64,000 bases of DNA from a virus (Duplodnaviria > Caudoviricetes), in the IMG/VR virus record IMGVR_UViG_3300028833_000110, positions 31,832 to 95,831 of that record, one strand, 5' to 3'. This document shows, in pieces, positions 11,558-36,747 of the stretch. Every line of letters begins with the position of its first letter. The first letter of the stretch is position 1. A program made the position numbers and the translations under genes. Under the pieces are notes generated by a model. That model was not told the origin of the DNA. It made no database searches and worked only from the letters and a program-made list of their open reading frames with translations.

Positions 11558-11698
11558 TTATTTACCTATAAGACCCTGAATACTATCCCCCATTATTTTT
11601 TTATATTCATTACCAACCTTTTTCATCCCATCTATAAATTGTTGTTGGTGATCTTTTTCTTTCTCTTTTTCTTTAGATTTTTTACGTAGTATCTTCAT
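11558..11698 (-). CDS. 46-aa leader-family peptide (MKILRKKS...)
   Basis: Not in ORF track; ATG overlaps stop of upstream gene; carries the KILR leader. Confidence 0.55.
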   Translation of the reverse strand: MKILRKKSKEKEKEKDHQQQFIDGMKKVGNEYKKIMGDSIQGLIGK

Positions 11699-13023
11699 TT
11701 GTTACCTCCAAATTTGTTTTTTATTAGCTTAGCTCCACCTCTAGTTAATTTTCCATAAGTAGCCCACTTTGATTTGTTTATAGTGCCACTTAGATAGGTT
11801 CCCCATGCAGTCCTAAACATTTCCTTTGCTTCCTTCAAATCATTTTCACTAACTCCACAATCTGTTAATACTTGATAACCATTGTAAGAGGCTAAAAATT
11901 CAATATAGAGGAGAGGAGAACGAAGGAGGAAGTTAGATACTATTCCAACTAATTCTCCAGTATTTCCTGCTAGCCCGCAACAAAATGCAACAAAGGATAT
12001 AAATTTTGAATTAAACATATTTCTTTTTCCATTACTTTGTAGCCAAGCTTTAGTGCCACCAGCTTTATCAATCAAGTAGTGTCCAATTTCATGAGCCAAA
12101 GCAATGGGAGTATCGAGTTCTGAATAACATATAACGTGTTTATTATTGTTATATGCCCAAAGAATCCAATCTAATATTGTTCTTTTTCTTTCAGGATCTC
12201 CATGTTTTTTTATTTTATCTATCTGTTCTTTATTCCAATTTGCAGGGTTGGTATAGAATGATCCAGTACCGAGATTCACTATTATTAAATCTTGGTAATT
12301 TTTCTTTACATAATTTATAATTTTTTTATAAACAGACTCATTAAATTTCCCTTTATATGAAGTTGTTAGTTTAATAGATAATCTTTTTCCCTCTTCTTTC
12401 ATTATTTTTGCTAATCCTAAATTTAATATAGAGGGAACTAAAGTAGCAACTATGGAAAATTGTTTTTGATATAGGGCTGGTGTTTTCTCTGGATCTAAGA
12501 AAATTTTAAACTCTGATCCATAAAACAACCGTAAGAAAATTAAGAACTCAAGAAAAGCTTTATATAAACTTACCCAACCCTCTTTTCGTAGTGGGACAGT
12601 AATTATAGGCTTTGGGGGATAATTACCTATTCTAACAAACTTATATTCCCAACCACAATCCTTTTTATGATATTTAGGGAGAATTGAGGCAAGTGGTCTA
12701 TATATACTACCCTCAGGGAAAGTTATTATTCCATCATTTATATAAAGAGGAATATCAAGCTGTCTATCAAACTTCATTTTGTGATCCCAAACAGATATAA
12801 GAGATCCAGACTTATAATTTCGGTTATTTGCAGGAAAGTTAATCTCTACTTCTTTTGGGAGATCAGAAACTTTAAATGATCCCCTTTTTATGTTATTTAG
12901 TTTATCTGTAGTTGATCGCATTTCATATTTATCATATAAATCCTTTCCTGCATATAAGTAAAATTTATATATGTCTTCCTGATCAAAATCCTTGAGGCTT
13001 ATTTGTTGTCGTAGTATTTTCAT
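11695..13023 (-). CDS. Leader-family protein with C-terminal HExxH Zn-peptidase domain
   Basis: MKILRQ start, internal QKQFS, AHEIGH...IEFLAS...TAWGTY. Confidence 0.8.
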   Translation of the reverse strand: MKILRQQISLKDFDQEDIYKFYLYAGKDLYDKYEMRSTTDKLNNIKRGSFKVSDLPKEVEINFPANNRNYKSGSLISVWDHKMKFDRQLDIPLYINDGIITFPEGSIYRPLASILPKYHKKDCGWEYKFVRIGNYPPKPIITVPLRKEGWVSLYKAFLEFLIFLRLFYGSEFKIFLDPEKTPALYQKQFSIVATLVPSILNLGLAKIMKEEGKRLSIKLTTSYKGKFNESVYKKIINYVKKNYQDLIIVNLGTGSFYTNPANWNKEQIDKIKKHGDPERKRTILDWILWAYNNNKHVICYSELDTPIALAHEIGHYLIDKAGGTKAWLQSNGKRNMFNSKFISFVAFCCGLAGNTGELVGIVSNFLLRSPLLYIEFLASYNGYQVLTDCGVSENDLKEAKEMFRTAWGTYLSGTINKSKWATYGKLTRGGAKLIKNKFGGNK

Positions 13024-13029
13024 GATAAT

Positions 13030-13263
13030 TTAGTGTTTATTAGCATGGTAGGCAGCTAATATTTCCTCACACTTTTCTTTAGAATCTTCTTCACATGTCC
13101 ACCATCTAGGGGGATTAGCTTTATAGGAAATTATACTCCATTTTCCATTAGGTTTTTTCTGGATGACACCTTCTTTTCTTCCACGTTCGGCTGTTTCTTT
13201 ATCTACAATTTCTCTGTCATCCTTTTTAGAGAATTGTTTCTGTTTATTTCTTAGTATAATCAT
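13030..13263 (-). CDS. Leader-family small protein
   Basis: MIILRNKQKQFS. Confidence 0.75.
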   Translation of the reverse strand: MIILRNKQKQFSKKDDREIVDKETAERGRKEGVIQKKPNGKWSIISYKANPPRWWTCEEDSKEKCEEILAAYHANKH

Positions 13264-13313
13264 GTTTACTTAAAATTAATGAAAATAAATAGAAAGATAT
13301 TTCTATCTCTCTA

Positions 13314-13610
13314 TCATTTTATTAGAATTTCTCCAAATTCATTATCCCAACTCCCTTTATATACAGCAATTTTAGGGGAGTTAATACCAAATCCAACGTA
13401 ATATATAATACCAGTTCCTTTTGGACAAAACCAATTTGAGCTATTTTGTAGTCCTTTTATAGCCTCCTTAAGACTTGGATAATATGAAGTAGGCTTTGAT
13501 CTTCTTTCATCTACTGTATTTTCAATGTACCAGACTCCCTTACCCTCCTTCTCTAATTTAGCTATCTTTTCATTTTTAATTAATTCAATATAAATCTCTT
13601 CAGTTGTCAT
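13314..13610 (-). CDS. Hypothetical protein
   Basis: Own CCTTATA motif at 13639-13645. Confidence 0.7.
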   Translation of the reverse strand: MTTEEIYIELIKNEKIAKLEKEGKGVWYIENTVDERRSKPTSYYPSLKEAIKGLQNSSNWFCPKGTGIIYYVGFGINSPKIAVYKGSWDNEFGEILIK

Positions 13611-13652
13611 AATATTACATATGTTTATTAATTACATATATAAGGGATTAGA

Positions 13653-14186
13653 TTACTTTTCCTCAGATTCATTTTTTCTCTTTCTTCTTCTGGATATATA
13701 AGTAGTTCCTCCGGCTATAACAGCGGGAGTAGCAATAAGAGCTGCTTTTCCACCTTTAGTTTTAGCAAAATCAGAAATCTTTTTACCAGCTTTTTCTACT
13801 TTATCCGCTACTTTCTGGTATTTTTCTCCTCTAACTTCTATGTCGGTTATTCCAGGTTTATTTGTTTTTCCAGATTTCTTATTTCTAATTTTATCAGCTA
13901 TATTCTCTGACCCCTTATCGGAATTTCTAGCTCCACGATAACCAAGATAACCAGCTCCCGCACCAAGTCCTGTGGCAGCAACACCAGCACCTATTTCTTC
14001 GGCAGAGTCACTAAAATCTCTTTCGGAATCATAGGATTTATTTTCATACATTTTCTTCTCTATAATTTCTCCGGTTATGTCATTTTTTGCAGATATTATA
14101 GCAAACTTACCTTCATTATCCTCTCCTATTTCCTTAATCTCAAAAGTCATGGGAATATCGGAATAAAGTTTTCTTTTTATTTTCAT
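13653..14186 (-). CDS. Leader-family glycine-zipper protein
   Basis: MKIKRKLYS, internal ERDFS, GAGVAATGLGAGAGYLG, basic tail. Confidence 0.75.
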   Translation of the reverse strand: MKIKRKLYSDIPMTFEIKEIGEDNEGKFAIISAKNDITGEIIEKKMYENKSYDSERDFSDSAEEIGAGVAATGLGAGAGYLGYRGARNSDKGSENIADKIRNKKSGKTNKPGITDIEVRGEKYQKVADKVEKAGKKISDFAKTKGGKAALIATPAVIAGGTTYISRRRKRKNESEEK

Positions 14187-14201
14187 ATTAAATCCTTTCT
14201 T

Positions 14202-14504: not shown

Positions 14505-15184
14505 ATCTTTTTATTCCTTTCTTTATTATAGGCGGTTATTTCATCTACATACTTATATAACATTCTTTTATCACTAGTCTCCGCATCTGATATCAGAAAG
14601 TGGTCAGTGAATAAGAAAATATTGAACCCTGTAATATCCATGTATAATCCCACCCCATCTATATCTTTCCACCGACATGTTTTAATCTTCTCTACGAACT
14701 TTCCTTTCGATTCTATGTCTTGTGGCAGCTTATATTCTTTTGGGATCATTAGTGCTATTTGATAACAACTACTAATATCAATGGAGGGAGGATAATCAGA
14801 GGGGTGTCGGATAGGTTTTCTTACTATTACTACCTCTCCATATTCTTTGTTATAGGCTATTATTCTATCCACATACTCATATATTATGGATTCTTCTATT
14901 GATGATATTCTGGAGAGTATCGTAAAATATCCATATAGCTTATATAGAGTATACTTGGTTATGTCTATATTCTTTACCTCAATCTCCTCATCTAGTTCTG
15001 TCCACTTGTCATCTAATACGGTAGAGTCAACAATTCTTCCTACCTTATTAAGGTCTTCCGGTATTTTATAGGCCTTCGGAATTAATAACATTATCATATA
15101 GTCATAGCAGAAAGTATCTATAAACGAAAATAAAGGAAGGATCTCTATGTGGTGCTTTAGTATAATTATTTTGTTATTTTCCAT
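14501..15184 (-). CDS. Hypothetical protein with internal domain duplication
   Basis: LLIPKAYKIPEDL/LMIPKEYKLPQDI and YEYVDRIIAYNKE/YKYVDEITAYNKE. Confidence 0.7.
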   Translation of the reverse strand: MENNKIIILKHHIEILPLFSFIDTFCYDYMIMLLIPKAYKIPEDLNKVGRIVDSTVLDDKWTELDEEIEVKNIDITKYTLYKLYGYFTILSRISSIEESIIYEYVDRIIAYNKEYGEVVIVRKPIRHPSDYPPSIDISSCYQIALMIPKEYKLPQDIESKGKFVEKIKTCRWKDIDGVGLYMDITGFNIFLFTDHFLISDAETSDKRMLYKYVDEITAYNKERNKKI

Positions 15185-15194
15185 ATCTGTTTTG

Positions 15195-16023
15195 TTAATT
15201 TTTAGGTTGGATTGTATTTCTTATAGTAGTTTTTATGTTAGCTAATCCTTTATTTTTGTAAGAATCCAGGGCTAGTTTATAATTTTTCTTGGCAGTTTCT
15301 ATGTCTTTTTTAGTAGCACCTGATTTTCTCAATACCCTTAATCCTTGCTTAGACGCTCTCCCTTCCTCAGCTATAATACTACCTTCATTTATAATGTCCT
15401 GTATTACATTCTTTATCCCAGACCTCCTATGTGTTCCCATCAAACTTTTAACCATTCCATAGTTTTCATTAGAGACTGGTATTGATTCCCCGGCTTTTTT
15501 GTGTATTAACTTTATTATGGGATTTTTACTTTGGTCATTAGAAACATGGCCAATTTCATGTGAGATTTGGTCAATTCCCTGTAATCTTGGTGGAATTATT
15601 ATCTGATACTTCATCTTTCCCCTCTCTGTCGATCTTCTTAGGCCATTAACTCTCCTTCGCTTATTTTTAAATTTTTCAGTTATATCTTCTGCATTTGAAA
15701 ATCTATTTGCCACCTCATTTGTCATAACTTGTGGAAACTGTGGTTTTTTGCTAGTTTTAATATCTAGGCGGGAAATTCTAGCTCCTCTTTTTTGAGCCTC
15801 TTTATATACATTTGTTCTAACGGCTTTACTACTTGGGAGTTTTATTATCCCTTCGTTTTTCAAATTTCCTATATTATATTCTCTCGCGATTATATTCCCT
15901 TCAATCGATTTTGTCAGTTTATTTGCAAGTTTTTTTTCTTAGCTTATTTACAGAATCACCTACAATACCAAACTCTTTCTGTTGATATTCTTCTAATGTA
16001 ATTCCCTTTCGTAATATTATCAT
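15195..16023 (-). pseudogene. Leader-family HExxH Zn-peptidase, split by one extra base in A8 run (15930-15937)
   Basis: MIILRKGITLEEYQQKEFG...KLRKK then +1 frame LANKLTKS...LKNEG...SHEIGH...EEGRAS..GL..LRKSGA...LALDSY. Confidence 0.7.
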
Positions 16024-16141
16024 AATTAATAAGTTTTAAATGAATAAAATAAAATAGAAAACCTAAGTCTTCTATTTCATTTTTATTTTATTCTTAACGT
16101 AAAGTCTTCATTTGCTTAAAAATTCCCAAATCAAAATTGCC

Positions 16142-16459
16142 TTAAGAATTTAGCCTTATCTCAGCTTTCACCCCCATAAGTTTCTTACAGGCTGAGAGAA
16201 GTTCGGTTTCAACTCTATCACCACTTACTTTTTCTATATTAACTGTTTTTCCGTCCTTATATAGTATTGAATACCAGTCTATAGTCTCAATTTTTATTCT
16301 CCCAGATCTTATAATATGCATTCCTATACCAGAAAATACAGTACGGGTGTTATCCTGTTCTATTCCTGATACTGTAAAAATAATTCTATAAGGAAGTTTA
16401 TCCTCATCTTTCCCTGTGATTAGAATAGTATCACCAACTACTACTTCTTTAGGTTTCAT
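16142..16459 (-). CDS. Hypothetical protein (VGD motif)
   Basis: 105-aa ORF. Confidence 0.65.
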   Translation of the reverse strand: MKPKEVVVGDTILITGKDEDKLPYRIIFTVSGIEQDNTRTVFSGIGMHIIRSGRIKIETIDWYSILYKDGKTVNIEKVSGDRVETELLSACKKLMGVKAEIRLNS

Positions 16460-16462
16460 AAT

Positions 16463-16876
16463 TTATTCTCGGTTTAAAATATCTGCATTTCTTTCTAGCC
16501 AGTTTTCCAGGAGTTCATCAAATTCTTGTCTTGGTACAATACTATACTCTCCATTATCCCAATCTTCCCAGTCTATGATGTGGTAATGGTTTGTCTCTAT
16601 ATTTATCCTTTTATTTCCTTTATCTTCTGTGATGGTTATAAAAATCCCATAAAATCCAGTGTATCCCCAATCTATTTGTTCTGCATCCCCTATTATCCTA
16701 AACCAGGAAATACCAGTTAGAGTAATAGTAGATACACTCCTTTTTATTATTTTTCCTTTCAAATCTGGGAGAGGATTTTTGTATGTCCCTAGTTCAATTT
16801 CTAATTCTTTTATTTCATCTTTTAAGTCCCTAAGTTGCTTTTTCTTTTTCTCTAACTCTTTTTTTAACTTTCCCAT
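16463..16876 (-). CDS. Hypothetical protein with N-terminal coiled coil
   Basis: 137-aa ORF. Confidence 0.65.
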   Translation of the reverse strand: MGKLKKELEKKKKQLRDLKDEIKELEIELGTYKNPLPDLKGKIIKRSVSTITLTGISWFRIIGDAEQIDWGYTGFYGIFITITEDKGNKRINIETNHYHIIDWEDWDNGEYSIVPRQEFDELLENWLERNADILNRE

Positions 16877-16987
16877 AATTTTGTATTTTATTATTTGTTC
16901 CCATGTTCTGAATTAACAGATACATACTCCGAGGATAGGAATATACATGGGAAATGAACACTAATCTTAACTCCTCCTTTTTAATTT

Positions 16988-17425
16988 TTATCGATTAGGT
17001 TCATTATATTCTTCATAAAATTTTATTATATCATATATATTTGTTTCATGAACACGTAACTGACCTAACTTATAAAAATATCCCATAGTATAGTTCATAT
17101 TAGTTTCACATTCTATAGGAACAAAACATGTTAAAAGCTGATAAGTCGTCATACTAAATTTTTTCCCTAACTCATTATCGCTTCTAATCTCAAAATTACC
17201 GTCATTATGGTACTCAAACCAATACGTTTCTCCTTTTTTTAACCAAGATAGAAATGGTTTTATACATCTAAAAAATCTCCCACTTACAAACTCGGAGATT
17301 GCTTTTTCATTTAGTAAAAAATCACTGGTTGGAATCATAAGTTTTTCTTCTGGATATAATGTTTTTTTAATAAATTCTCCATTAATTATAAAATAGTCTC
17401 CTACATCAAAAGTTTTTCCCATCAT
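16988..17425 (-). CDS. Hypothetical protein
   Basis: CCTTATA motif directly upstream. Confidence 0.65.
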   Translation of the reverse strand: MMGKTFDVGDYFIINGEFIKKTLYPEEKLMIPTSDFLLNEKAISEFVSGRFFRCIKPFLSWLKKGETYWFEYHNDGNFEIRSDNELGKKFSMTTYQLLTCFVPIECETNMNYTMGYFYKLGQLRVHETNIYDIIKFYEEYNEPNR

Positions 17426-17446
17426 TTATAAGGTTATCGAGTTAGG

Positions 17447-17851
17447 TTATCGGAGTTCTATCATTGCTCTTCCTGTTAGAACTTTTCCATCCTTGCAAAT
17501 GATACTAACAGCCATAGTTTCCTTATCCTTACAAGTACCTGTTATTAAAAAAGATTTCCACTCTCTAGGACATGCAGAAGTAGGCTCAAACTCATTGCTT
17601 AAACTCCAATATATAAAACTTTTAGAATCCGCATTTCCTTCAACTTCAAAACTTCCAGACTCTACTTTGAATGTACAGTTCTTTCCCAGGAATCGACTTT
17701 TATCTACAAAACGATCAATAGGTAAAACCCCAAAAATAGTCTCACCACCAATCTCATCTTCATATTCCTTTCCCAATTCTTTTATAGCACCCCTAAACAT
17801 TGTTTTTAGTGTATCTTTAAGAGAATAACTTTTTGTTCTTAGTATTTTCAT
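17447..17851 (-). CDS. Leader-family protein
   Basis: MKILRTKSYS. Confidence 0.75.
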   Translation of the reverse strand: MKILRTKSYSLKDTLKTMFRGAIKELGKEYEDEIGGETIFGVLPIDRFVDKSRFLGKNCTFKVESGSFEVEGNADSKSFIYWSLSNEFEPTSACPREWKSFLITGTCKDKETMAVSIICKDGKVLTGRAMIELR

Positions 17852-17917
17852 TTTTTATATTATTTAAAGAAAAAATGACTAAGCTTTTATACTTAATCAT
17901 TCTTTTTTTTGTTTGTT

Positions 17918-20086
17918 TTATATCAAATCATGCCATAAAGTATGATACTCATATTCACTTATCTCTGTGACTTTATTGAAAAATTCCTCTTCATTATCGA
18001 ACATCAATCGAATAAGATTTAATTCATCATCATTACAAGAGTGATGATTAATCCGATTATTGATAATTGTAATTCCACTGGCTATTACACAGAATTTTTC
18101 TTGTTCAAGTATATTCTTTGTCTCATACTTGGGGTCATGAAGATAATATACCTCATTATCCTTAACATACTTTAGATAGCAACATTTCTTCAGTTTTTCT
18201 TCTGATTTCGTCTCTAGTAAACTAAGGTCTCGTAATATACCCCTATTTTCTAAATTAAGGCAATGAGTTACTTCTTTTCTTACTACATCTATATCTCTTC
18301 TTTCAAAATCCCACCGACGACTGTCTTTTGTTTCCCAACAAAAGAAGGTTCCATCAGCATTTTTGTGAAAATTCTCTATCAACCAGGGTTTTTCATCAAT
18401 CTCTAACGGGAGGTCTACATCTGGGTTTTCTACTTCTGGGCTTTTTATTACGTTCACTTCCTTAAACCATATTTTATCAGGATTAACTGTTTCTGCTCTG
18501 AAGAATCGTCTCTCCATACCTTTGGATTCTTCACAAACCTGAAGCATTTCAAACCAATCTCCAACTTTTATGCCAAGATCTTTTGCTGTATTAGGTTTGT
18601 TTTCGGGAGTAGTTGATTTTATGGAAGATGAGTTTTGAAGGTTGACTTCATTTCTAAGAGTCATGAATTCTTCTTCTGAGATGACCTCAATCAAACTATG
18701 TGTATCATAAAGCAGCTCTTTTCCCGCCGGATAGTCTTTTTCTGTACGGTAATGACAGCTATTTTTGCTATCAATGGGAATCTCAAATGCTATTTCTGGA
18801 TAAAATACTATTGAACTATGTGCTACGTTCATATACACCTTATCCCCTCTTTTTGCCCTGTTAACTTTTATACAGGCTGCTACTCCGCTAGTAAGAGGTT
18901 TAACTATTATACATTTCCCACTAAAGTCTATACCTTTTTCTAAGAAATTCTCTATTGTCATCAACTTCTTATTAGGGTTGGGTATCAACATTAGTCGTTT
19001 AAATGTCCAATCGATAGTAGTACTCCAACTTCTTAGTGTTTCAAGTACCTCTTCTTTAGATATTTTCTTAAACTCTATAAAGAGATCTTCTGATTTAAAG
19101 TAAATTTTCCCTTCCTCTCTAAAAAAGCTTTCTTTATTCCAGGGTTCACTCTCTATTGATTGGTCAAGTCTTATATTTCTAGGTCTTACATTTTCCAAGA
19201 AAATAGAATCAGTTTCTATTTTACTTACGAAAAAGATACTCTCTAAATCTAGACTACAACAAGTATAGTATTCAGTACCCCTCAACCAATCACCAACTTT
19301 CAAGTTTAATTCCTCTTTCGGTTCCTCTATTCTTTTCTTTGAAAGAGAATCAGTAGTTGGTTTAGTTTCAGGTTGTAGTTGATGTTCAATTTCTCTTAGT
19401 TTTTCATCATACTCTTCCTTCGTTATTTTCTGACCTCCTATAATACTACCGTCTTTTATTTGAAATTTCCATTTTATTGCTATTTCTTCTTTTAATTTTT
19501 TAGGTATTCCGTTATCTAGTGTGTAATTAAACCCATCACCAGAAATTAGATATCTATCAAATCTAGTTCCCATATCTAAGCGAGATACAGAAGTTATCTT
19601 TACATAATATTCTCTACTTGAATTAAAAGAAGCATTGAAAGGGGAACTATAATGATAATAATCACCAACTTTAGGTTCATCCTTAGAAGTAGTTGATTGT
19701 TTGGAAGATGATTTTTTCTTACCAACTTCAAAGCACTCTAATATTAGTGAAACACCATTAACCTTCTTAAGTCGATTCTTTGCCTCATCTTCTCCTATCT
19801 TTTTTAGTTTTAGATGATCGTATTTTAGAATATCCTTTACTTTTTTGAAGTTCTTAATTTTATAGTCCCAACATAATACTTCCGATAGTTCTCCATCATC
19901 TATGCCAATCTCCACAAGTATTACGCTTGCCTGATTCAAGGATTTTACCATATAGAAATACTCAAATCCATGTTTAGAACCACCAATATCTTCAAACCAA
20001 TCTCCAACTTTTATGCCAAGGTTAAGAGTTGGTTCTTTCTTCTTATTGTTTTTTCCTCTTCTAAAGTTTTTATTCTCTTTTTTCAT
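17918..20086 (-). CDS. Repeat-domain protein (KVGDW/KVGDY modules)
   Basis: LGIKVGDWFE x2, PKVGDYY, LKVGDWL separated by S/T-rich linkers. Confidence 0.75.
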   Translation of the reverse strand: MKKENKNFRRGKNNKKKEPTLNLGIKVGDWFEDIGGSKHGFEYFYMVKSLNQASVILVEIGIDDGELSEVLCWDYKIKNFKKVKDILKYDHLKLKKIGEDEAKNRLKKVNGVSLILECFEVGKKKSSSKQSTTSKDEPKVGDYYHYSSPFNASFNSSREYYVKITSVSRLDMGTRFDRYLISGDGFNYTLDNGIPKKLKEEIAIKWKFQIKDGSIIGGQKITKEEYDEKLREIEHQLQPETKPTTDSLSKKRIEEPKEELNLKVGDWLRGTEYYTCCSLDLESIFFVSKIETDSIFLENVRPRNIRLDQSIESEPWNKESFFREEGKIYFKSEDLFIEFKKISKEEVLETLRSWSTTIDWTFKRLMLIPNPNKKLMTIENFLEKGIDFSGKCIIVKPLTSGVAACIKVNRAKRGDKVYMNVAHSSIVFYPEIAFEIPIDSKNSCHYRTEKDYPAGKELLYDTHSLIEVISEEEFMTLRNEVNLQNSSSIKSTTPENKPNTAKDLGIKVGDWFEMLQVCEESKGMERRFFRAETVNPDKIWFKEVNVIKSPEVENPDVDLPLEIDEKPWLIENFHKNADGTFFCWETKDSRRWDFERRDIDVVRKEVTHCLNLENRGILRDLSLLETKSEEKLKKCCYLKYVKDNEVYYLHDPKYETKNILEQEKFCVIASGITIINNRINHHSCNDDELNLIRLMFDNEEEFFNKVTEISEYEYHTLWHDLI

Positions 20087-20163
20087 AATATATATAATTT
20101 TATAATATATTATATATAAGGAAATAATAACTACTAGAATCGGAACAATTATAACTAATTTTT

Positions 20164-21165
20164 TTATTGAATTGGATGTATACGACTTTCATATTTACTC
20201 CAAACGGGAGTGGCAGATTTGTATGCACTTACACTCTCTGTTGGTACATAAATTGGACAACTACCTGTATTAGTAAACACATCTTCACCGAGCCCATCAT
20301 CTTCTATTGTGGGTGGATTTATTGCTTCACATACTATTGATTCTAGATTAGTACAACCAGTGAATGCACAATATCCTATTTCTGTGACTAAACTAGGTAT
20401 TCTTATTGAAGTTAAACTAGTACACCCATAACACATACTCGATGGTATTGAAGTAACAGAATTAGGGATATTAATAGAGGTTAAGTTAGTACACCCCATA
20501 AATACATCCTCCCCAAAACTAGTAACAGAATTAGGAATATTAATAGAGGTTAAACTAACACAATCCTTGAATACATCCTCCCCAAAACTAGTAACAGAAT
20601 TAGGAATATTAATAGAAGTTAAATTGGTGCACCCATGAAAAGTCTCATCATCTATTTTTGTATTAGTAATGGAATCTGGAATATTAATAGAAGTTAGTTT
20701 TTTGCAGAATCGAAAAACTCCAAAACCAATTGAAGTAACAGAATTAGGAATATTAATAGAGGTTAAATTCGAACAATATTCAAACGAACAATCACCAATA
20801 CTAGTAACAGAACTTGGAATATTAATAGAAGTTAATCTAGTACACTGAGAGAATACACTGCCTCCAATACTAGTAATGGAATCTGGAATGACAACTGAAA
20901 CTAATTCTTCATTCCAAGAAAATATTTCTGGTATTGATGTTAAAGCTTCTTTAAACTTAATAATACCTTTACCGTTATTATAGGTATTACTTTTTATTAT
21001 CTCTGATAGATCAGTAAAGTTTATTGCATTTCCACTAACACTAGTATACCAAATTTCATCATTAGGAGGTAGTATTATTTGGTTTTTTTTTGTTTTATTT
21101 AATATACTCCTAATTCTTAATAGCCAATCTTTTTCGCTATTGTTTAAATAAAGATTCTTATTCAT
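20164..21165 (-). CDS. BspA-type leucine-rich repeat protein
   Basis: About 8 C..LTSINIPNSVTSIG..F repeats. Confidence 0.9.
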   Translation of the reverse strand: MNKNLYLNNSEKDWLLRIRSILNKTKKNQIILPPNDEIWYTSVSGNAINFTDLSEIIKSNTYNNGKGIIKFKEALTSIPEIFSWNEELVSVVIPDSITSIGGSVFSQCTRLTSINIPSSVTSIGDCSFEYCSNLTSINIPNSVTSIGFGVFRFCKKLTSINIPDSITNTKIDDETFHGCTNLTSINIPNSVTSFGEDVFKDCVSLTSINIPNSVTSFGEDVFMGCTNLTSINIPNSVTSIPSSMCYGCTSLTSIRIPSLVTEIGYCAFTGCTNLESIVCEAINPPTIEDDGLGEDVFTNTGSCPIYVPTESVSAYKSATPVWSKYESRIHPIQ

Positions 21166-21184
21166 ATTTATTTTATTATACGTT

Positions 21185-21249
21185 TAACATACAGGGAAAG
21201 TTTACTTACTATCCCCCTCCTGTATGTTATTTTTTTTAATGGGAGATAG
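21185..21249 (-). promoter_or_regulatory. H-type RNA pseudoknot element, copy 1
   Basis: CUAUCUCCC/GGGGGAUAG interleaved with UAACAUACAGG/CCUGUAUGUUA. Confidence 0.6.
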
Positions 21250-21343
21250 ATTTTTATTTATGCGTGGTGAGACTTGGTGCAAAAATTCTAGTCTTGGGTT
21301 ATGGTTCTAAGACTAAAACTCCTGCACCAAATATTCCCCGCGC

Positions 21344-23537
21344 TTAGAACAGATTATTTAACATGCCCTGGAATATTTTTTGGGTTTCTTCTAGGGCGGA
21401 TGATGTTTGAGAGGAGAATGATTGAATAGTTTTGCTTACTCCACCATTCATTCCTAGTTCTTGATATTTAGAATAGTGATAGTAGCAATTGAAGAGAGCA
21501 CCAGAAACAGCATCAGCAAGGTCTTTACTCCCCTCTAGCTTATTCCCTTCCATTCCCGCATGATCAAACTCATAACAACTTGAAACTAAGGGGTGATCTA
21601 TTTTACAATGCTCTCCGTTAACTCCATTATAAGTCACTAATAGCTCACTACATTCTCGTAAAAGTATGTTGATATAAGGAAGCTCTAATCTTTCTGAATT
21701 TACTATATTCTTAAAGACGTTATAAGCCTCCATAGTTTTATCTACGGAAAGGGGTCTGTAGGGAATTCCATCTCTTTCAGCATTTTGTAAGATTCCGGCA
21801 CTAGCAAAAGAGTCAGCACTAAACTCGACGATATATCCATTTTTCACTAAGTCTTGTAAAAATTGATAGAGGTGGTCTAGTGATGTAGCCTGTCCCTTCT
21901 TTCTGGAAACAACAAATGCTAATGGAACTTTGAATTTGGGAAGTGTATATTCTCCTACTTGTTTTTCCCCATCATAATAACATAAAGCTATCCCAGTTTT
22001 ATCCTTCTTCAATCCTATATCATAATGTACATATAGTGAAGTGCCTCGTGGAATTCTGTAGATCATATTTTCGACATGAGAATATATACTATCTTCCTTA
22101 TCATAAAAATCGACTATAATTTCCTCGGGACTGTAATTCTTTAGGGTTGAGCAGTTTATGAGATGAGATATATTACCGTTGAAGAATCTCTCATCGCCGC
22201 TATAAGATACTCCCGCTAAGTCTCTAAGATTTCGGATTGGGTCGGCCAGGAATTTAAATTTGGCAGAGATGGGAACATTAATCACTCTGTCAGGATCTAA
22301 TCCAGATTTCTCCAGATCTTCGGAGTCTTCGATCACGCGGGGACCTGTAATATTATCTCCTTTATAGAACCTAAAAGTCTTACCATTAGACTCAAGGTAT
22401 AGTGGATCATAACGTATATCCCATTGTGCAAATCTACAGCGGTATAATTCCTCTGGGGGAACGAGAGATTCAAACTTAGTAACAGCAATATTATCCGGGT
22501 CCCTCGCTGAGCTGTCACAAACTACATGTCCATAAACAAATCTTTTATCAGCAAAACGAGAATCATAACGAGTCACAACTTCTGAAGCTCGAGCAGCCCC
22601 CTCCGAGGACCTCCAGAAGCCCAGCTCTGATAAACAGGCATATATCAAATTTCTTATTTTATAATAATTTTTTATTATATTAGACTATATCTTGTATTAA
22701 AACAGTATATACATAGTCTTTGAACTACTTTAAATTAAAGTAGCTGCTGATTTAATATATTAATTATTTCCAGCAATTCTTATACTATGAGCAAACTTTT
22801 TACTCCGATGACATGACTCCCGCTAGAAGGACCCGAGGGGATAAAACGAATGGGTGGTTTATGATAAGGACTTCTAAAATAAGGACTTGTATCAAACACT
22901 AAGTCAACATAATTTTTGAAGTCTCTTTTGGCAGTCTCGAAAGAATTGTGAAAGAAAGCCATTCCTAGTTTACTGTTCGCAATCCCAAGAGACTTAAATA
23001 CATTTGTACAGCAATCCAATCTATGGTAAGTATAGAGTGCTAGGATCTTACTGATAGTTGATTTTCCAAGTCCACAGTTTTATAATATTTCTATTATGAT
23101 AAGACTATATCTTCTTTCGTATATACACATAGTCGTTGAATAAGATACATAATTATCTTACTGCTAGTTTAAATCGGAATTTGTTTCTAGCAATTCTTAT
23201 ATAGGCCGCTGGACTTTCTGTTAACGGCACCCCCAAGAGAAATCCAGGGGTATTTTGTAGTAATTGAATTTGGATAAATCTTTTCTAATTCAGCATACCA
23301 TGGATCAAATAATGCTTTTCCATGATTAAATAAGTTATCATCTCCCATAAAATAATCATCACATATAAATCTTCTTATAGTCACTGGTTTATGATCCATC
23401 CCCAGTAATTTACACGCTGCTAATATTTTCTCCTCATTAGAAAGTTTATTATATTCAGATTCAAGTATGTTTTGGTTTATATCTGATGAAATAGAAAGAG
23501 TAGGATCATCACCTATATTTATATTACTGTTTTTCAT
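21344..23537 (-). CDS. terL: Terminase large subunit, 3 exons: 23224-23537, 22802-23074, 21344-22652 (631 aa spliced)
   Basis: Splicing restores Walker A GGAVGLGKST and HVIGVNLIYACLSE (Walker B-like); RNase H-like nuclease YVHYDIG..KD.TG, KIDHP, SKDLADAV. Confidence 0.85.
22653..22801 (-). ncRNA. Group I intron 2 in terL (149 nt)
   Basis: P AATTGCTGGAAA, Q AATCAGCAG, R GTTCAAAGACTA, S AAGATATAGTC; P1 GAGU/GCUC with U.G; terminal G; P10. Confidence 0.85.
23075..23223 (-). ncRNA. Group I intron 1 in terL (149 nt)
   Basis: P AATTGCTAGAAA, Q AAACTAGCAG, R TTCAACGACTA, S AAGATATAGTC; P1 GCCGU/GCGGC; P10 AGUCCA/UGGACU; terminal G. Confidence 0.85.
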
Positions 23538-27981: not shown

Positions 27982-27994
27982 ATTATAGGGTTAT

Positions 27995-28603: not shown

Positions 28604-28615
28604 TTATTTCTCGTT

Positions 28616-28684: not shown

Positions 28685-28691
28685 TATTGTT

Positions 28692-29705
28692 TTAGTTATT
28701 TTTATTTTGCTCTTCCATCACTTTTTTCAGAGCTTCATTTTCTCTCTTTTTTCTTTTTGCAGCTAATCTTTTATAAGCTACCTTTGTTCCTATAGAAGTA
28801 GCTGCAAGTGGGATGGCTGCGGCGGCTATTTTTGGACCATTCTTCAGGTGTTTTAGATATTTAATCTCAGATTTCGGAAGTTCCCCTTCATAATACTTCA
28901 GGGCTTCTTTACTCATCTTCTGAGCTTTTTCACTCATCTTATCTCGATAATTCTCGAATTCTTTTGAGGTCCATTTTTCCATAAGATCTTCAGTACTTAT
29001 TTTGGGATAACGCTCTTTCAATATCTCTTTTTCTGATTTTATTATATTTCGGACAGGAATAACAGCAGAACCTATGGCTCCTATTTTTGTTCCATACGAA
29101 ATCCCACGTAAAGCCTTTTCCTTTTTTTCTTCCTTATCGTAATTATAATTATTATCTTTCTCTTTTTTCGAATTTGTTAGCTTCTTAAGACCTCCATAAA
29201 TAGTACCGGCGGCTAATGAACCTATGGCTAAATTTTTCCTAAACTTTTTATTGGATTTTAATTTATCCTCTAATTTCTTCTTTTCTTTCTCAACTATTTC
29301 TCCAGTTTTTTGTTTCCCAGTTCTGTACTTAGATAAGGCCTCGTCTTTTATTCTTTTTATTTCCTCATTTTCTACTTTGGTATCACCACCATTAGATTTT
29401 ATTTTTGAGGACTTTAAAAAATCTGTAACGCTATCTGGTAGATCTCCAGTCATTATTCGTGCCTCTTGAATTTTAGCTCTTCGATGTGGTATAAGTTTTT
29501 CTTTGACATATTCATCAAAGTTATCTTTCGCTCGTTTTACTTTTTCATTAGAGACTTTTTTGCTCTTACGGTCATCTATGCGACTAATTGCTTGAGATGT
29601 CCCAATTCCACTAAGAGCTACAACTCCACCACCAATAAGAGCTGATCTGTCTTTCTTATCTTTCTTTTCTTTATCAGAAAAGCTTTTAGTTCTTAGTATT
29701 TTCAT
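28692..29705 (-). CDS. Leader-family lysine-rich protein with 4 hydrophobic segments
   Basis: Start reassigned to MKILRTKSFS. Confidence 0.75.
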   Translation of the reverse strand: MKILRTKSFSDKEKKDKKDRSALIGGGVVALSGIGTSQAISRIDDRKSKKVSNEKVKRAKDNFDEYVKEKLIPHRRAKIQEARIMTGDLPDSVTDFLKSSKIKSNGGDTKVENEEIKRIKDEALSKYRTGKQKTGEIVEKEKKKLEDKLKSNKKFRKNLAIGSLAAGTIYGGLKKLTNSKKEKDNNYNYDKEEKKEKALRGISYGTKIGAIGSAVIPVRNIIKSEKEILKERYPKISTEDLMEKWTSKEFENYRDKMSEKAQKMSKEALKYYEGELPKSEIKYLKHLKNGPKIAAAAIPLAATSIGTKVAYKRLAAKRKKRENEALKKVMEEQNKNN

Positions 29706-29721
29706 AATTTTAATATAATTT

Positions 29722-30534
29722 TTATGCACCCTGAGTTAAGTGTCTGGTACTAGTTCCTCCGGGAAGGGCTATTCTTCTGGAAGCTCTTGCTAGTGTATTG
29801 GCCCTACTAACATGTTTATAGGAACCCAAAGATGTTTTATAAAATCTTTTCGCATCCCTCAGTTCCTCTCTACTAGCTCCAGATCTCCTTAATAGTTTGA
29901 GACCTTTTCTTGATGCATTACCTTCTTCTAATATTGTTAACAGACTTTTTGGAATAGATCTCTCTCCTACTGGAGTCATATTATGATAAAGAGTACCTTC
30001 ATTCATTGTATTTCTCGATATTCTCCCCGATAAACCAGGACGATTACTCATGGCCCTATTACTATTCAAAGCATGCCCCGACTCATGAGCAACTACAGCA
30101 GCTGGGGGATTCACAGGGACAAGTATAGTATTCTTTCTATTTTTTGAATTAGTAGCTAATTTATTCTTTACTTCCTCAGGTATTGTAGGATTATTTTGAA
30201 AAAACTCTACAAACGTATTAGCCTGTTTAGGGCTATAAAAGGATCCACCACCAGTTAATTCGGGGGTTTTAACAATATCTATGTTATTATTTTTTGCGAA
30301 ATCCTCTAATTTTCCTAGTACTTTAGTATTGGTTGGTGTTTCATTATACCAGGTATTACTTAAATATGTTTTCTGCATTCCCTTATTGGCCTGATTTTCT
30401 GCAGACTTTCTTAGTCGATTAGAAACATTTACTCTAGTTCGACCTATATTTTTCCTTAAAGTCCTCTTTATTCCTGAATGTTTAATATCGCTTATAATAT
30501 TAAACTCTTTCTGTTTTTGTCGTAGTATTTTCAT
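29722..30534 (-). CDS. Leader-family HExxH Zn-peptidase
   Basis: MKILRQKQKEFN; AHESGH...EEGNASRKGL.LLRRSGA...SLGSY. Confidence 0.8.
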   Translation of the reverse strand: MKILRQKQKEFNIISDIKHSGIKRTLRKNIGRTRVNVSNRLRKSAENQANKGMQKTYLSNTWYNETPTNTKVLGKLEDFAKNNNIDIVKTPELTGGGSFYSPKQANTFVEFFQNNPTIPEEVKNKLATNSKNRKNTILVPVNPPAAVVAHESGHALNSNRAMSNRPGLSGRISRNTMNEGTLYHNMTPVGERSIPKSLLTILEEGNASRKGLKLLRRSGASREELRDAKRFYKTSLGSYKHVSRANTLARASRRIALPGGTSTRHLTQGA

Positions 30535-31738: not shown

Positions 31739-31765
31739 ATTAATTGTTTGTTTTATTTTTGTTTA

Positions 31766-31972: not shown

Positions 31973-31975
31973 AGT

Positions 31976-33004
31976 TTATTTTCTACTTTTTTTATAAATA
32001 GGGAATTTATTATACATATCATAATTAATATCTCTAACCCCAGCATTTAGGTAGGTTTGAAAGGCATCATTTAAATACCCTTCACCTCTTTCTGCATAAG
32101 TTGGTGTTATCTCCCCTTTCTTAACCGCTAAATTATGAATAGCATTGGCCTGTGAACTAGCATAATTTTCCTCAGCTAATTTTCTAATATCACCAGAAAA
32201 CTCTAGTCCAGTCGATAGCCCCTTTTTGGATGAAATAGCATGCCCAACCTCATGACCCAATACATATGGGTGAGCACCTGGCTTTACAGTAATTATGTCA
32301 TCATAGGTGTTATAACTATTACGATTTCCACTTTCGATTTGAGTTTTTGGTGTTACTCTACTAAGTTTTTTAAACACAGAGTTCATAGAATTCATTGGCT
32401 CTGAACCAGGAATGAAATCTTTATCTTTCATTGGATCTATATTATCTAATCGTTGACCGGCTTCTTCGTACCCACTCAGTGAACTATTATAAACCTTACT
32501 CGCAGATTTTGGTGCCCTTCTCTTAACAAATGGAGCCAACTCAGTATTTTTTTGATCCTCCAGTTTCCTCGACATTGCTTCAAGTCTATCAATATTACGA
32601 GGAGAATAATTAATTCCATAATGCCAATTTAATTCTCCGACTTTTTCCTGTTTAGTATCATACTTATTTTTTATTTGATTCACTTCCCGATTATGAATTC
32701 TTTGAAATCGTTTTTGAAATTCTGAGTCATATATATTACGATATTTCTGAATTAGGTGTTTTATACCTTTTCCAGATTCAGGCAATCCCATTCTCTCAAG
32801 GACCTGTCTAGCTTCATCATAATTAATACCTTCAAGATCCCCATAATCTATTTTTCGAGCAATATCATTAATTCTATATACATCCCTAGCATTCATTCCC
32901 TTCTTGCCTTTCGGAAGATGTTTAAGTCCTCCTGTAGCTTTATAAAATTCAAGAAATGCTTTTTTATCTTGGAATGTAAATAGTTTCTGTCGTAGTATTT
33001 TCAT
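31976..33004 (-). CDS. Leader-family HExxH Zn-peptidase
   Basis: MKILRQKLFT; GHEVGH...EENYAS...DAFQTY; N-terminal ~100 aa shared with next ORF. Confidence 0.8.
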   Translation of the reverse strand: MKILRQKLFTFQDKKAFLEFYKATGGLKHLPKGKKGMNARDVYRINDIARKIDYGDLEGINYDEARQVLERMGLPESGKGIKHLIQKYRNIYDSEFQKRFQRIHNREVNQIKNKYDTKQEKVGELNWHYGINYSPRNIDRLEAMSRKLEDQKNTELAPFVKRRAPKSASKVYNSSLSGYEEAGQRLDNIDPMKDKDFIPGSEPMNSMNSVFKKLSRVTPKTQIESGNRNSYNTYDDIITVKPGAHPYVLGHEVGHAISSKKGLSTGLEFSGDIRKLAEENYASSQANAIHNLAVKKGEITPTYAERGEGYLNDAFQTYLNAGVRDINYDMYNKFPIYKKSRK

Positions 33005-33993
33005 TTTCTTACTGCTTTTTTGATTCCACCAAAAAGTTTATTGGCACCACCACGTGTATATGTCGCTAATGCTGAATCTAAGGATTTTCGTGCCTTTCTC
33101 TCTACTCCTGGACGTATTTCTCCCCTTTTTACTCCGCTTCTTAATCTAGCTAATGCTCTAGAGGATGCCATATTTTCTTCTGCAATTTCAGATAGCGCAT
33201 CATTAGCATCAGTGGCTCTAAATCCGGGATCAAATCCTCTCTTATAATTTTGCTGATGTCCCCATTCATGTAAAAAAACAGATGGATTATAAGAAGAAAC
33301 ATAGATTTGATCTGGAAACATAGAATTAAAGTAGTTTTGTCCAGGTTTCGGGATAACAGTGAACACATTATCTTTCTCTAATACGTTAGCTATAAACTTT
33401 GTAGTCCTTGGTCCTCCAATACCTCTTTTTTTATACTTTCTTTCAACCCTATTATTTTGTGATTCAAAACGTTTTCCGGCATTGAGGAGGATATTTTCTT
33501 TTCCTTCAAAAAGAGGGTGTGATGGTTTATAGGTTTTATTAAGCCTATCTAAATTCCTATCAATCAATGTGTCGTATTTTTTATAAACCTCATATGGATT
33601 ACTAGATACATAGGCCTCTCTATCAGCTCTAGTAGATAATTTTTTATTTAGGTTCATATTTTTTCTGAATGAATCTCCAGACATAATATTTTCATACCTA
33701 TCCTGAAATTCTGGATCCTGTATCAACTTATATTTATGACTAAGGTGTTCTAATCCTTTTGCTGTCTCTGGAAGGTCAATATGTTCAAAAACCTTCTTTG
33801 CCTCATTCCAATTTACTTCATTAATTCTCCCCTGATCTACTAACTCCGCCCACTTTTTAAACCTATATACATCCCTAGCATTCATTTTACCTCGTCCATT
33901 GGGTAAAGTGGTGAAATTATTAGTTGCAGCCTTCAGTTCTTCCCAAGCTTTTTTATCTTGGAATGTAAATAGTTTTTGTCGTAATATTTTCAT
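33001..33993 (-). CDS. Leader-family HExxH Zn-peptidase
   Basis: MKILRQKLFT; LHEWGH...EENMASSRAL...SALATY. Confidence 0.8.
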   Translation of the reverse strand: MKILRQKLFTFQDKKAWEELKAATNNFTTLPNGRGKMNARDVYRFKKWAELVDQGRINEVNWNEAKKVFEHIDLPETAKGLEHLSHKYKLIQDPEFQDRYENIMSGDSFRKNMNLNKKLSTRADREAYVSSNPYEVYKKYDTLIDRNLDRLNKTYKPSHPLFEGKENILLNAGKRFESQNNRVERKYKKRGIGGPRTTKFIANVLEKDNVFTVIPKPGQNYFNSMFPDQIYVSSYNPSVFLHEWGHQQNYKRGFDPGFRATDANDALSEIAEENMASSRALARLRSGVKRGEIRPGVERKARKSLDSALATYTRGGANKLFGGIKKAVRK

Positions 33994-34685: not shown

Positions 34686-34700
34686 ACCATATTTTATTTT

Positions 34701-35174
34701 TTACTTTAATTTTAGCTTCATTAATTTCAGTGAGTCTTCATCATGATATTTAATTATCTCACCTGTATATTTAAATCCTAATTTCTCATAAATGTGTTGT
34801 GCTCGTTTATTTTCTACTGGTACTTCAAGTGTAATCCACTTATACTTTAATTCTCTTAGGTATTTTATTATAGCCATCAGTGCTTTTGTCCCATATCCAT
34901 TATTTTGATATTCATTATCAACAAAGAACCACGGAATATTAATTTCTTCGTTAGATTCTTTATTTAACATTATGTAACCAATGTTTTTTGAAGATAGCAT
35001 AATATCATATATAACACACAGGCCCTGTTGTTCTTTAATTCTTTTTGATAACTTCCCTAAGATTTTAGATATAATAGTTGGTTTAGTTTTTACTAAACTT
35101 AAGTTATCCCCAAGGTCTATTAGATTAATAGACTCTGACTTAAATGAATAGAGTTTTTGTCTTAATATAATCAT
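34701..35174 (-). CDS. Leader-family GNAT acetyltransferase
   Basis: MIILRQKLYS; V..EYQNNGYG, N.RA..IYEKLGF. Confidence 0.85.
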   Translation of the reverse strand: MIILRQKLYSFKSESINLIDLGDNLSLVKTKPTIISKILGKLSKRIKEQQGLCVIYDIMLSSKNIGYIMLNKESNEEINIPWFFVDNEYQNNGYGTKALMAIIKYLRELKYKWITLEVPVENKRAQHIYEKLGFKYTGEIIKYHDEDSLKLMKLKLK

Positions 35175-35313
35175 TTTAATTCCTCCTTTTTAATATTTCT
35201 CAGGATTTCTCTTTTCTTTCCAAACCCAGTCCAATAATCCCTTTTATACATTACAGGGACATGCTTAATCTCCTTTCCTCATTGTCGAAAGGATTTATTT
35301 AATTTTACTTAGC

Positions 35314-35358
35314 TCCCAGAGTGTAATTGAATACTACATCTATTTCAATGCTCTGGGA
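35314..35358. repeat. Conserved hairpin element B, copy 3
   Basis: TCCCAGAG/CTCTGGGA enclosing GTGTAATTGAATACTAC. Confidence 0.65.
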
Positions 35359-35366
35359 AAAAATTT

Positions 35367-35831
35367 TTATTCTTGTTCTTTTCTCCTTCTTCTCTTTTCT
35401 AATTTTACTGCTCTAGATGCTCTACCATGACCAATAGCTTGCTTACCATGAATTCCAGTCTTCATATATTCAGCAGCGGCAAGGGTACCTAATGCAACAC
35501 GACCAGCTTTTGATTTCGCCAATTTTCCGGTAGCATTCTTATCGTGAAGGGTTTTGGTTAGTCCTCCAGCAATAGAAGCATCAATACCTCCTGCAACACT
35601 ATGACCTACAGACTTTTTAAAATTATCCCAACCTAGTTTATTTAATTCTTCATCACTGAGGTTTTTTAATTCGTCTTTAAATTCTTTCATGGATTTCTTA
35701 GCAAATTCTCTTTGTGCATATTCATAACCCTCACAAAAAGCTCTCTCAAGGAGATCATCAAGTTCATCATTACCAGTACTATATAATCTTTCCTCTTCCT
35801 GATAATTACTGTATAATCTTTCTATTTTCAT
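35367..35831 (-). CDS. Leader-family protein, paralog of 27995..28603
   Basis: Near-identical first 43 aa ending AQREFA, unrelated payload afterwards. Confidence 0.8.
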   Translation of the reverse strand: MKIERLYSNYQEEERLYSTGNDELDDLLERAFCEGYEYAQREFAKKSMKEFKDELKNLSDEELNKLGWDNFKKSVGHSVAGGIDASIAGGLTKTLHDKNATGKLAKSKAGRVALGTLAAAEYMKTGIHGKQAIGHGRASRAVKLEKRRRRKEQE

Positions 35832-35843
35832 TTATTTCTCGTT

Positions 35844-35911
35844 GCTATAGGAGAAATTGTTTTTATCTTATCACCCCCCCCCTATAGCTCTGTTTTTAAG
35901 GAAGGATGATA
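35844..35911 (-). promoter_or_regulatory. H-type RNA pseudoknot element, copy 4
   Basis: UAUCAUCCUUC/GGGGGGUGAUA with GCUAUAGG/CCUAUAGC; ends 12 nt before ATG. Confidence 0.6.
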
Positions 35912-35916
35912 TTGTT

Positions 35917-36747
35917 TTATTCTTGTTCTTTTCTCTTTCTAGATAATTTACCAGTAATTTTTCCTGCCACTCTTCCAACACCAGTCATAGCAATCTGAGC
36001 CGCTGGACGAATTGCATAGGATCCAAGAGCATACGCCAGAGACTTTCTACTTCCTCTTAGTTGCGCTTTTGAGGCTCCAGCGTTTTTCATCAACCTTAAA
36101 CCCCTTCTACTTGCATCAGCCTCTTCAATTAATACTGGAGCATTTATTGCAGCCACTGGAACATATGCTCCAACTTTTTTTATTGTAGAATTGTCGTCAT
36201 TTTTTGTTTGATTATAACCCGAGGCAAATCCACTAGCCAAACCAATTGCACCTGTATTTTTTAGTAATTTTGAATACCTTAATCTCCCTTGTAGATCATT
36301 AAATAAAGAACCCCTAGCAGCTCTTTCTGCATGACCTAGTTCATGTGCTAATGTAGAAGTATCTTTCAAATTATTAAGTTTTACCGTACCAGCGGCGTTA
36401 TTTGGGTCCTTAATCCAGTCTTGATCAATTATTTTTCCACTTACTTTTACTTTTTTACCTTGTTTAATTGATTTTTTGATTCTATTTATATCCCTCTTAG
36501 ATATATATCCCCCAAAGGCTTCACCCCCTCGTGCAAACTTTCTCGGATTAACTTGAATCTCACTTACCACATTTTTATAATTAGGAACTTTTTTAAATTC
36601 CTCTATTACTTTTCGTGATAAGTCTACATTCCCACTCCCCTCTCTCGCTTCAATATGCTTCTTAAATAGAAAGGAATTAATTGGGTCAGTTATCTTTTTA
36701 CGAGGGGGGGGGTTATCGTTAAATAATTTTTGTCTTAGTATTTTCAT
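35917..36747 (-). CDS. Leader-family HExxH Zn-peptidase
   Basis: MKILRQKLFN; AHELGH...EEADASRRGL.LMK.AGA...ALGSY. Confidence 0.8.
   Translation of the reverse strand: MKILRQKLFNDNPPPRKKITDPINSFLFKKHIEAREGSGNVDLSRKVIEEFKKVPNYKNVVSEIQVNPRKFARGGEAFGGYISKRDINRIKKSIKQGKKVKVSGKIIDQDWIKDPNNAAGTVKLNNLKDTSTLAHELGHAERAARGSLFNDLQGRLRYSKLLKNTGAIGLASGFASGYNQTKNDDNSTIKKVGAYVPVAAINAPVLIEEADASRRGLRLMKNAGASKAQLRGSRKSLAYALGSYAIRPAAQIAMTGVGRVAGKITGKLSRKRKEQE

Follow-up and report, generated by a model that had tools for sequence, protein, structure and literature searches.

Six paralogous genes with zinc-peptidase motifs and a shared N-terminal leader in a gut phage contig: candidates for capsid-packed enzymes

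Why would a tailed phage carry six diverged copies of a zinc-peptidase-like gene, each associated with a version of the same short N-terminal leader? The question is raised by a 64,000-nt window of a Caudoviricetes contig (IMG/VR record IMGVR_UViG_3300028833_000110), in which six minus-strand open reading frames (ORFs), here called paralogs A to F, combine an HExxH motif with this leader. The window corresponds to bases 31832-95831 of the 95,831-bp contig, and all coordinates refer to it unless marked "contig". The analysis indicates that the six genes form one homologous set and that their products are probably capsid-packed enzymes delivered with the DNA; that they are injected we infer by analogy with the capsid-targeting sequences of phage T4 and from the genomic context.

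The six genes

In each of the six ORFs, H-E-x-G-H is followed first by E-x-x-A-S and then by [ST]-Y, and the three motifs stand in register in an alignment of the six translations that spans their C-terminal 110-170 residues. The genes and the positions of their motifs are as follows.

Paralog A, 11695..13023, minus strand: 442 residues, with HEIGH at residues 311-315 (nt 12079-12093), EFLAS at 375-379 and the Tyr at 410; made up of a leader (M-K-I-L-R-Q-Q...K-D-F-D), an N-terminal region of about 300 residues and unknown fold, and the C-terminal peptidase domain
Paralog B, body frame, 15195..15938, minus strand: HEIGH at nt 15546-15560 and EGRAS at nt 15351-15365
Paralog B, detached leader ORF, 15919..16023, minus strand: 34 codons, M-I-I-L-R-K...K-E-F-G
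Paralog C, 29722..30534, minus strand: 270 residues, leader M-K-I-L-R-Q-K-Q-K-E-F-N, HESGH at residues 150-154 and EGNAS at 204-208
Paralog D, 31976..33004, minus strand: 342 residues, leader M-K-I-L-R-Q-K-L-F-T, HEVGH at residues 251-255, ENYAS at 279-283 and the Tyr at 318
Paralog E, 33001..33993, minus strand: 330 residues, HEWGH at residues 242-246, ENMAS at 273-277 and the Tyr at 312
Paralog F, 35917..36747, minus strand: 276 residues, leader M-K-I-L-R-Q-K-L-F-N, HELGH at residues 135-139, EADAS at 209-213 and the Tyr at 244

A first-pass annotation of this DNA had described these ORFs as six paralogs with the three motifs, a common leader, and an insert between the catalytic motifs that varies from transmembrane-like and Gly-rich to short and soluble, and the alignment and the comparisons below bear out each part of that description. 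The spacing from HExGH to ExxAS ranges from 23 residues in D and 26 in E through 49 in C, 59 in A and 60 in B to 69 in F. A moderately hydrophobic, Gly-rich stretch lies between the motifs in A and F only, forming in F a hairpin within the 69-residue insert; the insert of C is soluble, and D and E have no hairpin. The maximum 19-residue Kyte-Doolittle mean is 1.3-1.7 in A and F and 0.2-0.7 in B-E. All six proteins are strongly basic, F for example having 55 Lys and Arg versus 24 Asp and Glu.

Homology among the six was traced at the level of both single sequences and profiles. Pairwise BLASTP interlinks A, B, C and F at 1e-5 to 6e-11. Paralogs D and E are sister genes in tandem that share 4 nt at their junction, and they are 31% identical over their whole length (BLASTP 8e-41); about 100 residues of the N-terminal region of D are strongly conserved. 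As single sequences D and E are weakly linked to the other four, and in a profile-profile comparison the D/E group (12 homologs, trimmed to the domain) aligns to a 133-sequence family alignment with an hhalign probability of 97% (E 1e-10), with all three motifs matched up and, at the site of the others' insert, a gap of some 50 residues. When all ORFs of the 95.8-kb contig are searched with a hidden Markov model (HMM) of the catalytic domain from which A, B, D and E had been left out, exactly these six are matched (F 7e-44, B 3.5e-22, C 1.6e-20, A 1.4e-15, E 5.7e-7, D 7.9e-4); because the next-best ORF reaches an E-value of only 0.14, the set of six is complete and specific for the contig. The six genes are homologous paralogs and not chance HExxH matches. 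They are also old, diverged and separately retained, since A, B, D and E each have a small ortholog group of their own; the ortholog of A, P0030, is 79% identical to it.

Paralog B departs from the first-pass annotation, which had read 15195..16023 as one gene: its motifs are all present, but the interval is not one open frame. The leader ORF and the body are offset by +1 at a run of eight A residues (about 15931-15938); the leader ORF stops just past this run, and with a +1 shift there it would run on into the body. The shift may be a mutation, an error of assembly or a site of slippage. The body frame is open from 15938, with a TTG at 15863 as the first of its listed starts. Intact B orthologs of 270-275 residues exist elsewhere, and along one of them (P0129) the leader ORF aligns to residues 1-32 and the body to residues 30-261. 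Exact-pattern scans of viral and metagenome contigs did not find a second copy.

An N-acetylmuramidase with a peptidoglycan-binding domain (10736-11542, minus strand; PF11860, 1.3e-57) lies directly downstream of paralog A. Between the two is a leader-tagged ORF of 46 codons (11558-11698, minus strand), which overlaps the stop codon of A; it is distinct from the muramidase gene, from which it is separated by a stop and by the muramidase's own start.

The peptidase domain and its wider family

Sequence comparison supports Pfam Zn_peptidase_2 (YugP, PF04298) as the nearest described family. It is the only Pfam family to match recurrently, being found in 65 of 133 family members at E <= 0.01 (best E 6.7e-8), while the runner-up, M78, matches six. 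Among the paralogs themselves, F scores 26.6 bits, or 27.1 with the neighboring segments of its frame, C 19.3 and A 16.2, in relation to a curated gathering cut-off of 27 bits; B, D and E on their own have no Pfam match. Several close homologs of F, from other samples, had been annotated as PF04298 beforehand. The part of the PF04298 model that is matched (positions 89-206 of 218) runs from the HExxH helix over the distal Glu motif to that of the Tyr, and the N-terminal third of the model is unmatched. In the six, in the 133 relatives and in the D/E group alike, HExxH comes first, then the distal Glu within an E-x-x-A-S-like helix, then a conserved Tyr; from the matched span of the model, we take these to be the YugP motifs. 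Members of PF04298 are presumably integral-membrane proteins, with hydrophobic helices flanking the catalytic helices and lying between them. The six do not share this membrane topology, as seen in the low hydropathy of B-E and the missing hairpin of D and E, and we propose that their domain is a distant, largely de-membranized relative of YugP.

The case for a functioning active site is strongest in the pattern of residue conservation. His135, Glu136, Gly138, His139, Glu209 and Ala212 (numbering of F) are invariant across the 133 relatives, in which mean column identity is about 17%, and they are invariant in the D/E group as well. An AlphaFold2 model of F computed from the 133-sequence alignment (predicted local distance difference test score, pLDDT, 81.6; predicted template-modeling score 0.72) runs from short strands through the HELGH helix (130-145), two short helices in the insert and the long Glu209 helix (195-222) to a long C-terminal helix with Tyr244, a predicted order that agrees with what PMC5512222 gives for the zincin core. 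An initial model from 13 sequences was poor (pLDDT 55.7) and was not used. In wider searches, BFVD returned one significant match, an uncharacterized protein of an uncultured phage; rows for an AR9 "zincin protease" and a PaBG peptidase were weak and not significant (E 0.3-0.8); a profile search of PDB sequences gave no match; and NCBIfam gave scattered weak zincin matches only.

The domain is widespread beyond this contig. When 1.84 billion cluster representatives were searched with a profile, 1,686 proteins were retrieved at E <= 1e-3, each standing for a cluster at 50% identity, and 495 at E <= 1e-10. Most of the best 150 family representatives start with a variant of M-I-I-L-R-x-K-x-F-S. 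Of 164 relatives collected, 147 are nearer to F, with its Gly-rich hairpin, than to any other paralog. F and most of the family have this hairpin in a conserved form (G-x-x-S-G / A-P), placed between the catalytic helices, and a glycine-zipper 2TM model is matched by one member. The IMG/VR contigs with the domain are 43-400 kb long; some of the loci are dense with leader-tagged ORFs, L011 for example having 15 in 16 kb, and one locus has two tandem copies. Two family members are fused to an InPase domain (L016:9623-11038 and L030:9752-12115; PF18823, 5e-34 and 1.5e-28), a domain restricted to phage-type polyvalent proteins (PMC5512222); a search aimed at longer fusions came up empty, a negative of little weight. 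PHROGs has no family for the six or for four relatives, tblastn with two queries found no match among 50,697 deposited phages, and DNA similarity to these was likewise nil. Because the family is abundant in metagenomes and absent from PHROGs and from the deposited phages searched, it is a blank in current annotation pipelines.

In other phage clades (L017, L009, L012, L019), members of the same peptidase family begin with a different shared motif, S-F-F-D-E-L-x-K-I-A. In L017 (L017:9959-10723 and L017:11323-12723) this motif is also found on a neighboring ORF of 466 residues, and it may represent an analogous tag system in another clade.

The leader and the possible routes of action

The leader is 9-18 residues long, follows the pattern M-K-I-L-R-Q-K-x-(F/Y)-small and ends in (K/R)-x-(F/Y)-small. 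Five of the six peptidases start with M-K-I-L-R-Q and B with M-I-I-L-R-K. A strict pattern, M-[KIRT]-[IVL]-[LIV]-[RK]-[QKE], is present at the start of 16 ORFs of the contig, and a looser one at 33, versus about 4 in shuffled DNA. Because the leader is encoded by varying synonymous codons (CTA/TTA/CTG, CGA/AGA/CGT, CAA/CAG) and the DNA upstream of it is unrelated from gene to gene, selection acts on it at the peptide level; the leader is also kept in homologs from other samples. Between the peptidase genes lies a GNAT acetyltransferase (34701..35174, minus strand; PF00583, 1.4e-14) that starts with M-I-I-L-R-Q-K-L-Y-S, so the tag sits on unrelated enzymes, and this protein may be a second packaged enzyme class. 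A Gly-zipper protein among the peptidase genes bears the leader as well. An ORF of 337 residues (28692-29705, minus strand), basic and rich in Lys, was considered as a further family member on account of its family-like start, M-K-I-L-R-T-K-S-F-S-D-K-E-K-K, and was rejected, having neither HExxH nor a domain match.

The end of the leader resembles a sequence that is concentrated in the head genes. In the head module, which lies on the minus strand upstream of the window, there are 55 instances of the motif (K/R)-x-(F/Y)-(S/A/T) where 10.8 +/- 3.2 would be expected, a five-fold enrichment that the remainder of the contig does not show. Scaffold-like ORFs contain clusters of the motif, and K-x-F-[ST] is repeated five times in the linker of the following ORF.

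Contig 10984-12297 (locus L004), minus strand, upstream of the window: prohead protease candidate of 437 residues, from language-model features

The first 200 residues of this candidate resemble S77/S80 prohead proteases in a protein language model (score 0.95, 171-176 shared features). An ORF of 231 residues was also considered for this role and set aside, an Atlas search giving no match and its sequence being scaffold-like. The model of the T4 capsid protein gp23, PF07068, has no match in the contig, and depletion of the cut-like motif inside the six peptidases is not significant.

These observations can be joined in a reading that we favor, although we hold it tentatively: the six would be zinc endopeptidases that are packed into the capsid, freed of their leader, and ejected to act on host proteins. 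Each protein would consist of the leader, a variable N-terminal part and a C-terminal gluzincin-type zinc-peptidase domain of 140-170 residues, in which the catalytic Glu and two of the ligands, both His, would come from the HExGH helix and the third ligand would be the Glu of E-x-x-A-S, with the conserved Tyr possibly a transition-state helper. The leader would act like a T4 capsid-targeting sequence and bring the protein into the prohead core, where a serine prohead protease would remove it by cutting past the aromatic residue. The mature basic proteins would remain in the head with the DNA, to be ejected into a Bacteroidota-like host, and there they would work as zinc endopeptidases on host proteins; with their different inserts and N-terminal parts, the six paralogs would have different substrates. 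The internal proteins of T4 are also basic.

Several results weigh against this reading. At the level of the family, five of the six paralogs fall below the PF04298 cut-off and three of these lack a Pfam match altogether, and YugP itself is only a putative protease (PMC13393411). At the level of the fold, the likeness to YugP-like neutral zinc metallopeptidases put forward in the first-pass annotation stands in sequence, in the near-threshold score of F and the matches among its relatives, and structure searches add no significant match to it: Foldseek against the PDB gave none at E <= 1e-3. With VIA-align, run against 48,161 chains, zincins score Z 4.4-5.1 (BepA, 6sar, Z 5.1 with rmsd 3.7 over 100 aligned residues; M1 aminopeptidases, Z 4.5-4.8; lethal factor, Z 4.4-4.5), which is within the noise of helical models, the best Z of 6.3 belonging to unrelated helical proteins. 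As to maturation, the T4 gp21 model (PF03420) has no match in the contig and the protease assignment rests on one non-alignment method, while a strict Ser, Ala or Thr past the aromatic residue of the leader is found in D and E only, the other peptidases having Asn, Asp or Gly there. Finally, paralog B is frameshifted.

A more far-reaching form of the favored reading is doubtful in our estimation. It would make the six part of a very large, unannotated class of phage-injected zinc proteases (at least 1,686 clusters at 50% identity), in which a YugP-like membrane protease was made soluble, acquired a clade-specific capsid tag, and was duplicated and diversified until each copy targeted a different host defense or envelope protein. 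A single infection would then bring in a whole set of proteases, as a proteolytic counterpart of the injected anti-restriction proteins.

Among the alternatives, the one that survives best, although we consider it rather unlikely, is that the peptidases act inside the head or prohead during assembly, trimming packaged proteins or themselves, and not in the host. Their genes do lie in the head and cargo region and bear a head-associated leader, and an in-head role has been proposed for other virion zincins, namely those of P1 DdrB and the N4-type virion RNA polymerases (PMC5512222) and a conserved zincin of phiKZ-like phages (PMC7824862). The contig, however, has a separate serine prohead protease candidate with a motif cluster of its own, and this also makes less likely the first-pass suggestion that the peptidases process the other leader-bearing cargo. 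That cargo, moreover, comprises separate small proteins, each with its own leader, and no large polyproteins in need of internal cuts, and six diverged paralogs with distinct orthologous groups in related phages are better explained by diversified targets than by a single housekeeping step.

It is less probable again that the leader is some other localization, stability or co-translational signal, in which case the six would be late or early cytoplasmic proteases of host takeover that are never packaged. The link from leader to capsid is made by analogy only, and jumbo phages do carry non-virion zincins in variable number, such as SprT-like proteins, that are proposed to cut host proteins (PMC7824862). 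Yet the motif that ends the leader is enriched in the head module only, the leader-bearing genes are scattered, on a single strand, among those for portal, terminase, scaffold-like and protease-like proteins, and the strongly basic character of all six proteins also speaks for packaging.

Of nearly the same low probability, and if anything slightly lower, is a role as membrane-acting ejection proteins. Here the Gly-rich hairpin inherited from YugP-like ancestors would insert into the host envelope, and the proteins would help to form or open the DNA conduit or cut envelope proteins instead of cytoplasmic defense targets. The relatives in PF04298 are membrane-associated, YugP being located in the spore inner membrane (PMC13393411); the hairpin is kept in F and most of the family; and both the family member with a glycine-zipper 2TM match and the neighboring leader-tagged Gly-zipper protein agree with such a role. 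Against it, the hydrophobicity of A and F is borderline, a hydrophobic segment is missing from the other four paralogs, and the hairpin has been lost from D and E. Lastly, that the six are non-catalytic internal head or core proteins keeping a zincin-like scaffold is highly improbable: the weak fold match and the one broken copy would agree with it, but His, Glu, Gly, His and the distal Glu, invariant in 133 otherwise so divergent sequences and in the six paralogs, would be unexpected in a pseudo-enzyme.

The phage and its place among known systems

The completeness of the contig is estimated by CheckV at 24%, which for 95,831 bp implies a full genome of roughly 400 kb. Its G+C content is about 31%, and many of its genes lack an upstream Shine-Dalgarno sequence. 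Near-identical DNA is present in sheep-gut metagenomes, with bovine and goat gut runs matching in part, and in two runs of sheep-gut metatranscriptomes 32-48% of the sampled words of 15100-22000 are present. HNH homing endonucleases are found among the head and terminase genes (23524-24831, minus strand; contig 12355-13581, minus strand). This combination of size, composition, missing Shine-Dalgarno sequences and homing endonucleases is reminiscent of the "Jug" phages of Bacteroides and Phocaeicola and of related phages from ruminants (PMC12880540). A BspA-type leucine-rich-repeat protein (20164-21165, minus strand; PF13306, 1.2e-65) is encoded within the head and packaging region.

Two further loci concern proteolysis apart from the six paralogs. 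The phage codes for an ATP-dependent protease of its own, since an ORF of 870 residues (47580-50192, plus strand) is matched by phrog_4871 (3.4e-167), a PHROG family of such enzymes. A seventh HExxH ORF, with HESAH near residue 145 and a C-terminal CobT-type vWA domain, is unrelated to the six peptidases and adjoins a MoxR/CbbQ-type AAA+ ATPase.

56063-58072 and 58076-59242, minus strand: neighborhood of the vWA/HESAH ORF and the MoxR/CbbQ-type ATPase, from domain matches

The layout of 56063-59242 is that of a MoxR-vWA pair with an N-terminal metallopeptidase, as in T4-like jumbo phages (PMC7824862).

If the favored reading of capsid-packed, ejected peptidases is true, giant gut phages deliver several zinc proteases at infection by means of a loading tag that is short, portable and recognizable. 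The six would be candidate enzymes of anti-defense or envelope remodeling, the leader would provide a sequence rule by which to list the injected proteome of an uncultured phage clade, and the system would offer a first functional handle on PF04298/YugP, a family without a known substrate.

In phage T4, proteins with a capsid-targeting sequence (IPI-III, Alt) are cut by the prohead protease gp21. The present locus is similar in that an N-terminal peptide of about 10 residues is common to unrelated proteins, the genes lie in a neighborhood of head genes, the cargo is basic and in part enzymatic (peptidases, GNAT), and an S77/S80-like protease candidate is nearby. It differs from T4 in the sequence of the tag, in a predicted cut past Phe or Tyr where that of T4 is past Glu, and in the number of tagged genes, which is at least 16 and up to about 30 in 96 kb.

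A second comparison is with the zincin domains of polyvalent proteins, as in P1 DdrB and the C-terminal domain of the N4 virion RNA polymerase, which are phage-encoded, often present in several copies and predicted to travel with the DNA (PMC5512222; for the structure of the N4 virion RNA polymerase, see PMC13434306). Like them, the six peptidases are encoded by a phage and form a multi-copy set, and some relatives of their family are fused to InPase. Unlike them, they are stand-alone proteins of 270-440 residues, each with its own N-terminal tag, and not domains of giant polypeptides; Pfam models of polyvalent-type peptidases are absent from the matches of the six and of the 133 relatives, and the self-processing proposed for polyvalent proteins would have no obvious substrate in this phage. 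With the zincins of jumbo phages (phiKZ-like group 1 and SprT-like group 2.2), which are proposed to cut head or host proteins (PMC7824862), they have in common a putative membership of the zincin superfamily, giant phage genomes and a variable copy number, but they have no sequence match to any deposited phage searched. Compared with PF04298 and YugP, the six phage proteins are basic, mostly non-hydrophobic, and carry a phage leader. Virion-delivered zincin domains are already known as a computational theme (PMC5512222), and capsid-targeted cargo of the T4 type is a known kind of system; what differs here is the YugP-like lineage, its stand-alone form behind a short address tag, its six-fold expansion in one genome, and the size of a family that has so far gone unannotated.

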